From: Escherichia coli
GTDB lineage: Bacteria > Pseudomonadota > Gammaproteobacteria > Enterobacterales > Enterobacteriaceae
Strand: one strand, 5' to 3'
Assembly: GCF_003790525.1 (NCBI RefSeq)
Contig: NZ_CP033635.1
Length of the DNA stretch: 64,000 nucleotides
Shown: positions 12,790 to 64,000 of the stretch, piece after piece
How the letters are laid out: each line of letters opens with the position of its first letter
Position numbering within the stretch: position 1 is the stretch's first letter
Notes under the pieces: generated by a model
The model's input: only the letters and a program-made list of their open reading frames with translations
Database searches by the model: none
Told to the model about the DNA's origin: nothing
Translations under genes and position numbers: made by a program

Positions 12790-12905
12790 GCAAACGCAAA
12801 ACTGCCTGATGCGCTATGCTTATCAGGCCTACGAGGTTTCTGCAATGTATTGAATTTGCATGTTTTTGTAGGCCGGATAAGGCGTTCACGCCGCATCCGG
12901 CATGA
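12790..12905. repeat. REP element cluster
   Basis: gcctgatgcgctatgcttatcaggcctac ... taggccggataaggcgttcacgccgcatccggca REP units between yqjG and yqjF. Confidence 0.55.
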
Positions 12906-52196: not shown

Positions 52197-52205
52197 TGCT
52201 ATGTC

Positions 52206-52253
52206 TGGTGGCCCCTGCTGGACTTGAACCAGCGACCAAGCGATTATGAGTCA
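52206..52253 (-). other. ileX: 3' partial copy (about 47 nt) of tRNA-Ile2 (ileX, CAU anticodon): island att junction
   Basis: Minus-strand read gives ...GACTCATAATCGCTTGGTCGCTGGTTCAAGTCCAGCAGGGGCCACCA, i.e. anticodon loop, T-arm, acceptor 3' strand and CCA. The 5' half (acceptor/D-arm) is absent; the upstream sequence diverges. Confidence 0.75.
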
Positions 52254-52378: not shown

Positions 52379-52402
52379 TTACCTGACCCATTACCTGACC
52401 CA
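52379..52402 (+). repeat. tandem 12-bp direct repeat (ttacctgaccca x2) upstream of int
   Basis: Two exact adjacent copies about 47 bp upstream of the integrase ATG, within the island-side arm of the att junction. Confidence 0.6.
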
Positions 52403-52448
52403 AAATCACGAGTTATTCTGATTGTTACTGGTTTAGAAAAGAGGTTCT

Positions 52449-53765
52449 ATGGCCGTCAATCTTACTGAAACAGCCATCCGAGCATTGAAAGCAAAAAAGA
52501 CATCGTTCTATGTCTGGAGCAACAGCTCTCAACGTGGCACTGGACGACTTGGTGTCAAAGTTCAGCCTTCTGGCAGCAAGATTTTCTATTTCCGCTATTA
52601 CGTGGAAAAAGGGAAAAAAGAAAGATTCATTCAATTGGGTATATGGCCTGAGATGAAACTGGCCACAGCGAATGAACTGACAAAAAAGTATGGTGCCTGG
52701 CTCATTGAAGGAAAGGATCCCCAGGCAGAACTGGAACGACAACAGTTTGCAGAACAGCAGCGGATACAACTCCATCAATCACAGGGCTCATTTGAAGCAT
52801 TGATTCATGGTTATGTTAACAAAATGAAAATTGATAATAAGAGGACATGGCAGGATGTTCTGAAACGCCTTGAAAATGAATGCTATACAGTGATCCCCCG
52901 TGAAACTAAAGCTAAAGATGTGACTTCCGGACAGATTAAACATATCCTGGCCGGGATCATTCAGCGCGGTGCTGTGGTTCACTCTAACCGGATCCGTTCT
53001 TACCTGATGGCTGCATTTAACTATGGACTGAAAGCAGATAACGATCCGATGAACACAAGTGTAGGGATTACTTTTGGGCTGGAGGCAAATCCGGTGTCAG
53101 TGATACCGAAACAGTCATCTGCTGAAAAAGTCGGTGATACCTGGCTGACACTTGAAGAGTTGCGTTTTCTAATGGAACATTTTGCTGAAGCAACCAACGT
53201 TGGATTATTGATGCAACATTTGATCCGATTCTGTATCTATACCGGAGGGCAACGTCCTTTCGAAATGATCGCCAGTCAGTGGTGTGATGTTGATTTTCAA
53301 CAAAAAACGCTGCTGGTGACTGCTGATGTCTCTAAAAATAAACGAGAGCATTTGATACCGTTGACTGAATCAGCATTACAGGAATTATCCTGTGTGCAGG
53401 AGTTAACAAAAGAAAAATCCAGCCCTTACATTTTTCCACTTTCGACTAATGGTAAGCGTCCGGTTCGTACGGACAGTCTGGCTCGCGCTATCATGTATTT
53501 CCGGGCTTTTAATCCTGACTTTAAAATTTTTACAGCACGTGACTTACGTCGGACCTGTAAAACGTTAATGGGAGAAGCTGGGATCAGTAAGGAAATCCGC
53601 GATCGTATTCAAAATCATGCGTTGAACGATGTCAGTTCAAAACATTATGATCGATACGATTATTTGCCAGAAAAACGCAGAGCACTTGAGATCTGGGAGG
53701 ACCGGGTTAATAACTATCAACAGCAAACAGGCAATAATGTTGTCAATCTGTTTGGCAGAAGGTGA
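52449..53765 (+). CDS. P4-type tyrosine recombinase / phage integrase
   Basis: 438-aa ORF MAVNLTETAIRALKAKKTSFYVWSNSSQRGTGRLGVKVQPSGSKIFYFRYYV... (typical N-terminal arm-binding region of P4-like integrases); the C-terminal region contains R, H and Y residues compatible with a tyrosine-recombinase catalytic core; adjacent to the tRNA fragment. Confidence 0.9.
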   Translation: MAVNLTETAIRALKAKKTSFYVWSNSSQRGTGRLGVKVQPSGSKIFYFRYYVEKGKKERFIQLGIWPEMKLATANELTKKYGAWLIEGKDPQAELERQQFAEQQRIQLHQSQGSFEALIHGYVNKMKIDNKRTWQDVLKRLENECYTVIPRETKAKDVTSGQIKHILAGIIQRGAVVHSNRIRSYLMAAFNYGLKADNDPMNTSVGITFGLEANPVSVIPKQSSAEKVGDTWLTLEELRFLMEHFAEATNVGLLMQHLIRFCIYTGGQRPFEMIASQWCDVDFQQKTLLVTADVSKNKREHLIPLTESALQELSCVQELTKEKSSPYIFPLSTNGKRPVRTDSLARAIMYFRAFNPDFKIFTARDLRRTCKTLMGEAGISKEIRDRIQNHALNDVSSKHYDRYDYLPEKRRALEIWEDRVNNYQQQTGNNVVNLFGRR

Positions 53766-60366: not shown

Positions 60367-60561
60367 CGACGTCAGGTGATGCATAAGGGCCTTTCGCTGA
60401 GAGGCCCTGTTTACACAATTAAATAAGTCGAACCCGACCAGCAATTTTGACGTTGACGGCAGGATTATTGAGGGGCAATCAATGTGTTCTTCGGCAGCGA
60501 TTACGGTAGTGAACGGACCTGCTGTCTGAATGGTATCGATCCGCAAGCGTATCTGCGCCAT

Positions 60562-61650
60562 TGGATTTGCCCCTATATTTCCAGACACCTGTTATCACTT
60601 AACCCATTACTGGCCCGCTGCCGTAGATATTCCCGTGGCGAGCGATAACCCAGTGCACTATGCGGATGCCATTCGTTATAATGCTCGAACGCCTCTGCAA
60701 GGTTCTTTGCTGCCGTTAACCCGTCTGGTTTGGGCATGATACTGATGTAATCACGCTTTATCGTTTTCACGAAGCTCTCTGCTATGCCGTTACTCTCCGG
60801 ACTCCGCACCGCCGTGTTCTTCGGTTCAAGTCCCAGCATCCGGGCGAACTGGCGTGTTTCATTAGCCCGGTAGCATGAACCATTATCCGTCAGCCACTCC
60901 ACTGGAGATGTCGGAAGCTCGCTGCCGAAGCGGCGTTCCACCGCTCCCAGCATGACGTCCTGTACTGTTTCACTGTCGAAGCCGCCCGTAGTGACCGCCC
61001 AGTGCAGTGCCTCACGGTCACAGCAGTCCAGCGCGAACGTGACCCCCAGTTTTTCTCCGTTATCACAGCGGAACTCGAACCCGTCAGAGCACCATCGTTG
61101 ATTGCTTTCTTTCACGGCCACTTTGCCAGTATGTGCCCGTTTCGATGGCGGTACAGCGGTTTTTCGCTCAAGCAACAGCGCATTCTGGCGCATGATCCGG
61201 TAAACACGTTTGGCATTGATAGCAGGCATACCATCAAGTTCGGCCTGTCTGCGAAGCAGCGCCCATACCCGACGATAACCATACGTGGGCAGCTCTCCGA
61301 TAACATGGTGTATACGGAGAAGCACATCCGTATCATCTGAGTGACGGCTGCGGCGACCATCTTTCCAGTCATCGGTTCGTCTGAGAATGACGTGCAACTG
61401 CGCACGCGACACCCGGAGACAACGGCTGACTAAGCTTACTCCCCATCCCCGGGCAACAAGGGAGACCGTCATTCCCGGTTCAAAGCTCTGCTGAACAATA
61501 GCGATCTTTTCCTGTGTAGTACGCCGTCTGCGTTTCTCCGGCCCTAAGACATCAATCATCTGTTCTCCAATGACTAGTCTAGAAACTAGTATTAAGACTA
61601 TCACTTATTTAAGTGATATTGATTGTCTGGAGATTCAGGGGGCCAGTCTA
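60562..61650 (-). mobile_element. IS2 (IS3 family) with internal deletion of about 240 bp
   Basis: IS2 terminal sequences recognised at both ends (minus-strand 5' TAGACTGGCCCCCTGAATCTCCAGACAA... and ...GGGGCAAATCCA 3'). Length about 1089 bp versus 1331 bp for intact IS2. Confidence 0.85.
60573..61559 (-). CDS. insCD: IS2 transposase derivative: in-frame fusion of InsC N-terminus (about 37 aa) to InsD
   Basis: Product [37 protein letters not shown]|[24 protein letters not shown]... with DDE integrase core. The junction lies between similar VAR/IAR codons; the native -1 frameshift region is missing. Confidence 0.8.
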
Positions 61651-61984
61651 TATATCAATTAATCATTAGTTTAAAAGCTTGTTCAACTGCATACATCATT
61701 AGCGTTTAAGCCAGTGAACAGGAAGTTTACTGGCTTAATTACAGTAATATAGTGTATCGCTATGCTCACTGAGTCTTAGATCTCCACCGTCGGTCTAATA
61801 TTCGCACTCCTGCTAACAACCGGTAATCAAATCGTCCTCCGGTATTGAAAGTTAATACACAAATCAGGATGATGGAGGCTCATACTGGTACAGCGCGACC
61901 ACTTATGCAGGCGTCTCTGTCAGGTTTGTTGCCCGGATCACCCGCATCAGGGACAGGGCTGTTCAGTTATCCGCAGGAGAAAAT

Positions 61985-62995
61985 ATGTCACTCAAGGCTA
62001 TCGCCGCCGAACTCGGGATCTCTGTCACCACAGTCAGCCGGGCGCTTGGCGGATTTTCGGACGTTTCCGCTTCGACCCGTGCACGTGTAGAAGCGGAAGC
62101 TCGGCGTCGTGGTTATCGCCCGAATACCCTGGCAAGACGTCTCAAAACCGGTAAAACCGATGCGGTCGGCCTGGTCTTCCCTGAACATGCTGTACTGTTC
62201 AGCAGTAGTGTGTTTGTGGATATGGTCAGTTGTATCAGCCGGGAACTGGTCCGCCATGATATTGACTTACTGCTGATAGCCGATGATGAACGGGCTGACA
62301 GCCACAGCTATATGCGTCTGGTCGAAAGCCGCCGGGTTGATGCCCTTATCGTGGCGCACACGATGGATAATGACCCGCGTCTTACACACCTGCAGGAGGC
62401 CGGTATTCCGTTTCTGGCACTCGGTCAGGTGCCGTCCGGTCTTCCCTGTGCCTGGTTTGACTTTGATAACCATGCAGGAACCTGGCAGGCCACACAGCAC
62501 CTGATTGCCCTGGGCCATCAGCGAATTGCCCTGCTGAGTGAGGACAACTCCCGTGCCTATGTCACTGCACGACGTCAGGGATGGCGCGATGCCCTGAGTG
62601 AACATGGTCTGCCTGAGACCTGGCTACGCCGGGTCTCTCCCACCCGACGCTCAGGTTTCCAGGCAGTGACTGAGTTAATGTCACTTCCGCTTCCCCCGAC
62701 GGCCATTATTACCGACAGTGACCTGATCGGTGATGGCGCGGCCATGTCGCTGCAGTTATCCGGTCATCTGTCCGGAGAGGATGCCGTCTCTCTTGTGGTT
62801 TATGATGGTCTGCCGCAGGACAGTATTATTGAACAGGATGTGGCTGCAGTTCTTCAGTCAACACGACATCGCGTCGGTCGTCAGATTGCCGACATGATAC
62901 GCCAGCTGGTCACGAATGTTTCACCTGAAATGCTACAAGTACTCTGGCAGCCGGAATTTCATCCTGGCAAGACAACGCTTGCTCCCTCCGCCTGA
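61985..62995 (+). CDS. LacI-family transcriptional repressor (RafR-like)
   Basis: 336-aa ORF MSLKAIAAELGISVTTVSRALGGFSDVSASTRARVEAEARRRGYRPNTLARRL... with N-terminal LacI HTH and periplasmic-binding-protein-like body; directly upstream of an alpha-galactosidase gene. Confidence 0.7.
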   Translation: MSLKAIAAELGISVTTVSRALGGFSDVSASTRARVEAEARRRGYRPNTLARRLKTGKTDAVGLVFPEHAVLFSSSVFVDMVSCISRELVRHDIDLLLIADDERADSHSYMRLVESRRVDALIVAHTMDNDPRLTHLQEAGIPFLALGQVPSGLPCAWFDFDNHAGTWQATQHLIALGHQRIALLSEDNSRAYVTARRQGWRDALSEHGLPETWLRRVSPTRRSGFQAVTELMSLPLPPTAIITDSDLIGDGAAMSLQLSGHLSGEDAVSLVVYDGLPQDSIIEQDVAAVLQSTRHRVGRQIADMIRQLVTNVSPEMLQVLWQPEFHPGKTTLAPSA

Positions 62996-63088
62996 TTTTT
63001 AATCCCGCTCACAAATTCGAATCGTTTCGGTTGCTATCCGAAACGATTCGGATCAACAGTAAGGCATACCCGAAAACGGAGATGTCTT

Positions 63089-64000
63089 ATGGAACCGATG
63101 TACCGCAGGCTGACCAGTCCCCACTCAGACCTGATTATTAAAACCCACCCGTATGCAGAGATTGTCTGGTGGGGATCCACCCTGAAACACTTTTCACCGG
63201 ATGACTGTATCAGCCTGGAAAGGCCGGTTGCGAATGGTCGTCTGGATACCGACACCCCACTGACGCTGATGGCCGAAAACGGCGCGGGACTTTTTGGCTC
63301 GCCGGGGCTGGAGGGACACCGCAACGGGCTGGATGCGTCCCCTGTGTTCCGTACCATCAGCGTGGTACAGGCCGGAGAATCACTCACCCTGACCAGTGAG
63401 GATGCAGTGGCGGGTCTGCGCATGGTCAGTGAACTGGTGCTGACATCGTCCGGTGTGCTGAAGATGCGTCATGCCCTGACGAACCTCCGTGAAGGGGACT
63501 GGCAGGTGAACCGCTTCGCCATCACGCTCCCTGTGGCTGAAAGGGCAGAGGAAGTCATGGCCTTCCACGGACGCTGGACTCGTGAGTTTCAGCCGCACAG
63601 GGTCCGTCTCACACATGACGGTTTTGTGCTGGAGAACCGCCGGGGCCGCACGTCCCATGAGCATTTTCCGGCACTGATTGCCGGTGCCCCCGGTTTCTCA
63701 GAACAGCAGGGCGAGGTGTGGGCCGTACATCTGGGCTGGAGTGGCAACCATCGCATGAAATGTGAGGTCAAAACTGACGGACGGCGTTACCTCCAGGCGG
63801 AAGCACTGTGGATGCCCGGAGAAAAAGCCCTGAAGAAGGATGAGACCGTGTACACGCCGTGGCTGTACGCCAGCTATTCCCCGGAGGGGCTCAATGGTAT
63901 GAGTCAGCAGTACCACCGTTTTCTGCGCGATGAAATCATCCGTTTTCCTGAGCAGAAACCCCGTCCGGTGCACCTCAATACCTGGGAAGGTATTTATTTT
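63089..64000 (+). CDS. alpha-galactosidase, GH36 (RafA-like), 3' end outside window
   Basis: Open frame from ATG 63089 to the window end: MEPMYRRLTSPHSDLIIKTHPYAEIVWWG...RPVHLNTWEGIYF (GH36 N-terminal domain pattern). Not in the ORF track because there is no stop within the window. Confidence 0.7.
   Translation, partial: MEPMYRRLTSPHSDLIIKTHPYAEIVWWGSTLKHFSPDDCISLERPVANGRLDTDTPLTLMAENGAGLFGSPGLEGHRNGLDASPVFRTISVVQAGESLTLTSEDAVAGLRMVSELVLTSSGVLKMRHALTNLREGDWQVNRFAITLPVAERAEEVMAFHGRWTREFQPHRVRLTHDGFVLENRRGRTSHEHFPALIAGAPGFSEQQGEVWAVHLGWSGNHRMKCEVKTDGRRYLQAEALWMPGEKALKKDETVYTPWLYASYSPEGLNGMSQQYHRFLRDEIIRFPEQKPRPVHLNTWEGIYF

Follow-up and report, generated by a model that had tools for sequence, protein, structure and literature searches.

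Two enterobacterial sugar-utilisation systems are among the closest points of reference for the locus described here, namely the sucrose (scr) regulon of the pUR400 type, which is arranged as scrK-scrY-scrA-scrB-scrR and has the genes for a fructokinase and for the porin ScrY as its first two members, and the raffinose (raf) operon. The latter, classically borne on plasmids (pRSD2 and K88 plasmids), is given the order rafRABD-rafY in the accounts of Aslanidis (1989) and Ulmke (1997) as they are cited in PMC4809568 and PMC12987596. Here we analyse a 64,000-nt stretch of Escherichia coli DNA (contig NZ_CP033635.1 of assembly GCF_003790525.1; hereafter ‘the window’, with positions counted from its first letter), the end of which (61985-64000) had been interpreted, in an earlier reading made from the letters and their open reading frames (hereafter the sequence-only reading), as the rafR-rafA head of the raf operon carried in a tRNA-integrated island beside an IS2 element. 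We consider it probable (at roughly 0.85) that the window end represents the head of a raffinose-family-oligosaccharide operon of a distinct lineage, which is carried as foreign cargo in an island at the tRNA gene ileX and is joined to that island by an IS2 derivative.

The first gene of the pair, rafR (61985..62995, plus strand), encodes a 336-aa LacI-family repressor, starts with an ATG that is preceded at 5-6 nt by an AGGAG, and specifies both a helix-turn-helix domain (Pfam PF00356, residues 3-47, 38.6 bits at a cut-off of 27) and a sugar-binding core (Peripla_BP_1, PF00532, residues 58-311, E 2e-70). After a spacer of 93 bp it is followed by the 5′ part of rafA (63089..64000, plus strand), which begins with an ATG at 63089, is preceded by a GGAG at 63078-63081, and remains open for 304 codons up to the window end, where it covers residues 1-304 of a 708-aa GH36 enzyme (i.e. 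the N-terminal domain and the beginning of the catalytic barrel). The LacI and GH36 domain matches are far above chance, and the succession of a LacI-family repressor and a GH36 alpha-galactosidase proposed by the sequence-only reading is borne out by Pfam, its start of the first gene (61985) being exact. Near-identical genomes (with 1 base different across window positions 61600-64000) annotate the second gene as a 708-aa alpha-galactosidase. Furthermore, a search with the exact RafR protein of the window (which bears the substitution A89V) led to a contig with a 20.7-kb locus (L017) that agrees with the window in every base of 60433-64000; the full-length RafA encoded in this locus and in strain cq9 contains the Pfam domains Glyco_hydro_36N, Melibiase (E 5e-115) and Glyco_hydro_36C. 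In L017 the enzyme displays the motifs DDGWF, KWDMNR (residue 447) and SGGGRID (as CASGGGRID), with KWD and SGGGRID situated outside the window. We take KWD to contain the nucleophile Asp, and SGGGRxD the acid/base Asp, of GH36 enzymes such as AgaA/AgaB.

Beyond the window, L017 continues from rafR with intact genes for RafA (708 aa), a LacY-family permease (RafB, 425 aa) and a GH32 invertase (RafD, 476 aa, with the GH32 motifs WMNDPNG, RDP and EC), so that the permease and the invertase that had been anticipated past the window end are both present in this contig. These are succeeded by a crr-like gene whose 171-aa product is an EIIA-Glc paralogue, by a DUF2913 gene in two fragments, and by genes for a fructokinase (308 aa) and a LamB-family porin (498 aa), after which an IS1414 fragment follows the nine-gene cluster. 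The same gene array was found in strains cq9 and N-01, as well as on an IncFII plasmid of Salmonella Saintpaul, and the limits of what we term the raf module were set against this last copy, which is free of IS2 (L004, 99.2% identity). So delimited, the module measures 10.1 kb, stops approximately 70 bp past the porin gene, and has a GC content of 56.6% (versus 39.7% in the island arm and 51.1% in the core chromosome). The porin aligns with the ScrY structure 1A0S across all of its 413-residue barrel (740 bits; approximately 80% identical by inspection) and possesses an N-terminal sugar-porin extension. The tail of the module thus resembles the scr regulon (pUR400, Klebsiella) in that a fructokinase gene is followed by a ScrY-matching porin gene with a LacI-type palindrome before it, and differs from it by the absence of scrA, scrB and scrR; since, in addition, the module terminates so shortly after the porin, its tail corresponds not to the scr regulon but only to the first two genes thereof. 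The palindrome itself (CTAAATCGATTTAG, L017 18156-18169) is perfect and resembles an operator of the ScrR/FruR type; no scrR was found in the module. The locus is inconspicuous in annotation: the NCBI pipeline names the repressor ‘substrate-binding domain-containing protein’ and the porin merely ‘carbohydrate porin’, and neither a RafR nor a RafA label appeared among the protein-cluster names.

For comparison, the classical lineage was represented by three plasmid operons (i.e. those of the K88 plasmid pUMNK88_K88, of the IncF plasmid p123 and of an IncK2 plasmid), which served as stand-ins for pRSD2. Two reasons led us to regard this lineage as classical: it carries RafY, and a published E. 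coli RafR (GenBank AM886293.1, read by optical character recognition from the supplement of PMC13056197) is approximately 96% identical to its K88 copy. The window lineage shares with it the order R-A-B-D, a LacY-type permease and a GH32 invertase, with identical product lengths (336/708/425/476 aa). The identity of these products to their plasmid counterparts amounts to 77-79% for RafR (75% against AM886293.1 in its optically read form), 87% for RafA, 88-89% for RafB and 83% for RafD; the RafR of the window and that of the Salmonella plasmid copy are 98.8% identical. At the DNA level the identity to the classical lineage is 79.6% and is limited to the stretch from approximately the rafR start through the rafD end, the upstream region of the window locus being unrelated. 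The two lineages also differ past rafD, where p123 encodes a porin of 464 aa (Pfam PF16966, ‘glycoporin RafY’, 491 bits), the IncK2 plasmid an intact porin of the same length (88.6% identical to the RafY of p123), and the K88 plasmid a porin gene split by ISEc48, whereas the window lineage is without RafY and has the crr-like EIIA, the broken DUF2913 gene, the fructokinase and the ScrY-type porin, a member of the LamB/ScrY family that is approximately 20% identical to RafY. A further difference resides in location, as the window lineage is mostly chromosomal. Taken together, the shared gene order, the protein identities of 77-89% and the ScrY-type tail point to a second lineage of raf-type operon with an scr-like tail fused to it; judged by these sequence comparisons, the locus is a second, diverged raf lineage and not the classical plasmid operon. 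The earlier proposal of a classically plasmid-borne raf operon was therefore correct as to the type of operon and has to be amended as to its identity with the plasmid one.

The kinship with raf extends to the control region of rafA (63009..63051, plus strand), in which a 16-nt inverted repeat (94% complementary) resolves into two 14-mers, the predicted operators O1 (TCGAATCGTTTCGG, 63017-63030) and O2 (CCGAAACGATTCGG, 63038-63051). Between them lies a -35-like hexamer (TTGCTA, 63031-63036), and at 63009-63013 there is a TCACA that may constitute a CRP half-site and is invariant across the compared copies. In the description of raf published by Aslanidis (1989), two operators are reportedly positioned on either side of the -35 box. 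The same layout (O1, -35, O2) is kept in 7 copies, comprising the window, the Salmonella plasmid, two intermediates (with RafR 88% and 83% identical to that of the window) and the three classical plasmids; at the level of sequence, the 14-mers have the characteristics of LacI/GalR operators, being palindromic around a central CG and located at the rafA promoter. Together with the gene order and the product lengths, this region matches the plasmid raf operons and upholds the assignment of the pair as a rafR-rafA head. Moreover, residues 11-24 of the RafR recognition region (GISVTTVSRALGG) are identical to those of the K88-type/IncK2 RafR (P0081, AM886293), and the IncF-type RafR (P0080) departs from them by one change (V for I at residue 12). 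The O1/O2 motif, as a further site of RafR action, was found nowhere else in the 20.7 kb of L017, the region before the tail genes included.

In view of the conserved operator layout and the identical recognition residues, repression by RafR at O1/O2 that is relieved by an alpha-galactoside is the likely mechanism of control. RafR would be bound to the two operators around the rafA -35 box and would be released by the alpha-galactoside inducer; RafB, as a proton symporter of the LacY type, would then import raffinose, from which RafA (GH36) would remove galactose and leave sucrose, RafD (GH32) would split the sucrose, and the fructokinase of the module would phosphorylate the fructose, with the ScrY-type porin providing for the passage of sugar through the outer membrane. 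As regards rafR itself, the module begins with an upstream region of 333 bp (61652..61984, plus strand) that presumably holds the rafR promoter and in which two promoter-like sites occur that are not above chance; a promoter and terminator scan of 61500-63300 likewise returned nothing above chance. A 14-nt inverted repeat (TTAAGCCAGTGAAC / GTTTACTGGCTTAA, 61706-61738) was observed 5′ of rafR, where it overlaps a promoter-like -35.

The setting of the module is an island in the E. coli chromosome, and within the window the chromosomal genes (ebgRAC, ygjG, aer, nfeR, nfeF) give way to foreign DNA. Directly after the nfeF terminator, at the left end of the island, lies the displaced native 3′ half of the tRNA-Ile(CAU) gene ileX (52205..52251, minus strand; a 47-nt piece that runs from the CCA terminus as far as the anticodon loop). 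It matches the corresponding half of the K-12 gene without a difference, and in K-12 the whole tRNA gene stands at this place beside nfeF. In strain N-01 a complete tRNA-Ile closes the island approximately 45 kb away, and its 3′ half is island-derived, with differing T-arm bases. The displaced half and the rebuilt tRNA-Ile of N-01 indicate that the island is integrated in ileX, as the sequence-only reading had supposed for a tRNA gene; the ileX site is empty in K-12 and in strain Sanji. No whole tRNA gene was detected within the window by ARAGORN or Rfam, and the notion that the island is for this reason not tRNA-integrated was abandoned after the displaced ileX half had been identified.

Next to the displaced half is the island integrase gene (52449..53765, plus strand), which encodes a P4-type tyrosine recombinase of 438 aa (Pfam Arm-DNA-bind_3 and Phage_integrase; annotated in N-01 as a tyrosine-type recombinase). 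The integrase thus adjoins the displaced ileX half, and it is the YeeU/CbtA end of the island that borders the rebuilt tRNA; an integrase beside the displaced half is the reverse of the arrangement expected for P4-type islands. In comparison with such islands (CP4-57-like), the likenesses consist of the tyrosine integrase with its arm-binding domain, the duplicated tRNA 3′ half, YagK/YfjJ and, at the far end, Ag43 and YeeU/CbtA genes, and the differences of the target (ileX) and of the integrase position adjoining the displaced tRNA half instead of the rebuilt tRNA. A motif of 25 bp (TTACCTGACCCATTACCTGACCCAA), in which a 12-bp unit is present twice, occurs at 52379-52403, approximately 45 bp 5′ of the integrase gene, and again in direct orientation at L003 17663-17687, approximately 55 bp inside the far island end beside the rebuilt tRNA-Ile; the two copies may be arm sites of the integrase.

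Between the island arm and the module stands an IS2 derivative of 1090 bp (60562..61651, minus strand), which ends 333 bp 5′ of rafR and aligns in two pieces (96-97% identical) with the full IS2 of plasmid p123. Both termini are kept, and relative to the full IS2 (approximately 1331 bp) the element has suffered an internal deletion of approximately 241 bp, with a 14-nt overlap of the two pieces (an apparent microhomology), so that the rearranged state of IS2 noticed previously finds its explanation in this deletion. As a result of it, the N-terminus of OrfA is fused in frame to OrfB in a 343-aa open reading frame (60573-61604, minus strand) that bypasses the usual frameshift, contains the Pfam domains HTH_Tnp_1, HTH_21 and rve, and is called an intact ‘IS3 family transposase’ by the Prokaryotic Genome Annotation Pipeline (PGAP). 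A 5-bp target duplication is lacking at the two ends of the derivative (flanking pentamers GCCAT vs TATAT), and the element is probably incapable of moving by itself. The island backbone ends, just before it, in a transposase C-terminus remnant (60484..60561, plus strand), which is cut by the IS2 derivative, is recorded as a partial coding sequence in N-01 and, by our own reading, presumably belongs to the IS66 family.

Both ends of the IS2 derivative coincide with breakpoints of homology. At the inner end, 61652 is the exact position from which the Salmonella plasmid copy without IS2 is homologous to the window. At the outer end, strain cq9 has the segment in common with the window from 60562 onward only and has a different left neighbour, and a raf-less variant of the same ileX island (in strain W24) follows the window without a break as far as 60561, then continues the frame of the transposase remnant (PGAP: ‘transposase domain-containing protein’) and diverges into a two-partner-secretion hemolysin/hemagglutinin cluster (L019 22468-35709). 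Since an internally deleted IS2 forms the link between module and backbone, the acquisition of the module was most likely the outcome of IS2-associated recombination, a direction and a mechanism that we infer from this arrangement; the IS-mediated capture put forward by the sequence-only reading is thus in agreement with the breakpoints found at both IS2 ends. An alternative would hold that the module has belonged to the ileX island from the outset and that the IS2 derivative came in later and without connection to it, in the absence of any IS-mediated capture. The comparable numbers of genomes that have the module in ileX context (165) and that have the full module (184) speak for this alternative, as they would suggest stable vertical or island-linked inheritance; we nevertheless regard it as unlikely, given that the derivative is without a target duplication, that the W24 island diverges to other cargo exactly at the outer IS2 end, that the IS2-free plasmid copy starts exactly at the inner one, that the IS2-raf segment of cq9 has another left neighbour, and that the GC content of the module exceeds that of the island arm by 17 points.

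Two observations on related junctions may be added. In cq9 (L001 1-10245) the IS2-raf segment is preceded by a galactan-type cluster (ABC transporter, GH53, beta-galactosidase, maltoporin and LacI regulator), which makes the cargo there a second carbohydrate island. The IncK plasmid pS84-1 has a full-length IS2-like element at the same junction (L005 10702-11936), which is 77% identical to IS2 over 557 bp aligned inside the transposase gene and nearly identical over the last 78 bp beside raf.

The locus is an ordinary one, carried by several per cent of the E. coli with a sequenced genome: the operon head is present in approximately 4.5% of complete genomes (246 of 5426), at least 80% of the 10.1-kb module in 184 genomes and the island arm in 255. 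As the operon head occurs on only 8 PLSDB plasmids, the window raf lineage is mainly chromosomal; it travels for the most part in the ileX island, with E. coli and Salmonella plasmids as occasional carriers. Among earlier reports, a 69.2-kb chromosomal insertion with rafRABDY was described in strain Sanji (PMC6392093), and PMC12987596 reports that raf genes are associated with isolates from chickens. The Sanji insertion was considered as a possible instance of the ileX island and rejected, because the empty ileX site of that strain places its raf insertion elsewhere. We argue that E. coli probably owes raffinose use to two or more operon lineages that have diverged from each other, and not solely to the textbook plasmid one, which would be of relevance to annotation, to gene-association studies that count rafY or rafABD (e.g. 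PMC12987596) and to the diet-linked adaptation of gut E. coli, and raises no new question of principle.

Several observations weigh against the interpretation of the window end as the head of a functional raffinose-type operon captured through IS2. With respect to function, the inducer specificity of the RafR of the window lineage is assumed from the characterised type, to which this RafR is 77-79% identical. With respect to expression, no convincing -10 hexamer was seen by eye 16-18 nt past the -35-like box, and a consensus promoter scan placed no site at the rafA promoter. The RafR of the window is, moreover, a rare allele: its A89V substitution stems from a C to T change at 62250, where all best-matching complete genomes have C, and the exact protein was met in only 3 contigs, whereas hundreds of contigs have the common variants within its cluster. 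Of the 249 operon-head records, 188 have at least 80% of the module as a single piece, and the remaining quarter or so implies that truncated copies exist. Finally, the right end of the module does not lie at an IS terminus, being followed by 127 bp of unassigned DNA and then by IS1414 and IS3-family fragments; because of this gap, the IS1414 terminus was discarded as the module boundary.

Some of these points would fit a locus that is silent, that serves melibiose only or stachyose, or that is crippled by the A89V change in RafR or by IS effects on rafR. Besides the rarity of A89V, such an explanation could draw on the fact that the region upstream of rafR is cut by IS2 333 bp before the start and has promoter-like sites that do not surpass chance. 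We judge it improbable, since all reading frames are intact in L017, an alpha-galactosidase, a LacY-type permease and an invertase make up the set required for raffinose catabolism, and the module is maintained at an identity of at least 99% across approximately 250 records; furthermore, the IS2-free plasmid copy has the same 333-bp region upstream of rafR, from which it follows that IS2 did not remove it. 

A more elaborate proposition, that the module is a self-contained hybrid in which rafRABD and the head of a sucrose regulon are combined with an EIIA-Glc paralogue of their own that tunes the inducer exclusion of RafB, appears doubtful to us. Were it correct, raffinose use would escape from host glucose control or be re-wired relative to it, which could help to explain the commonness of the module in E. 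coli of poultry and pigs fed with soybean oligosaccharides. In the paralogue, which is encoded between rafD and the fructokinase gene, both histidine motifs of the active site (ETNHAF and LFVHFG) are preserved, and its nearest solved relative is PDB 3OUR (‘Phosphotransferase system IIA component’), which we take to be a Vibrio EIIA-Glc. It is adjoined by the broken DUF2913 gene (the pair lies at L017 16054-17151), and the Salmonella plasmid copy shows the same break. Least credible of all is a recent move of the classical plasmid operon itself (pRSD2/K88 type) into the island, for which the equal gene order and product lengths and the presence of IS2 5′ of rafR on p123 too could be adduced, but which is contradicted by a DNA identity to the plasmid lineage, as represented by the three stand-in operons, of 79.6% that does not extend beyond the start of rafR or the end of rafD, by proteins at 77-89%, and by the RafY (PF16966, 464 aa) of the plasmid lineage as against the ScrY-type porin (approximately 20% to RafY), crr-like and fructokinase genes of the window lineage.

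Apart from the plasmid operons, related loci are known at two levels of distance from the second raf lineage that we favour for the window. Contigs of metagenomic origin and from Enterovibrio have rafRABD in the same order with RafR 83-88% identical, and LacI-family regulators of Dickeya, Cronobacter, Lelliottia and others are 55-69% identical to the window RafR; these loci, and the raf/scr clusters of D. dadantii, are more distant and have other tails and other contexts. Elsewhere in the window, the only Rfam match is a small RNA, ES036 (CssrF), at 12825-12865 on the minus strand (38.4 bits at a gathering score of 37.6).

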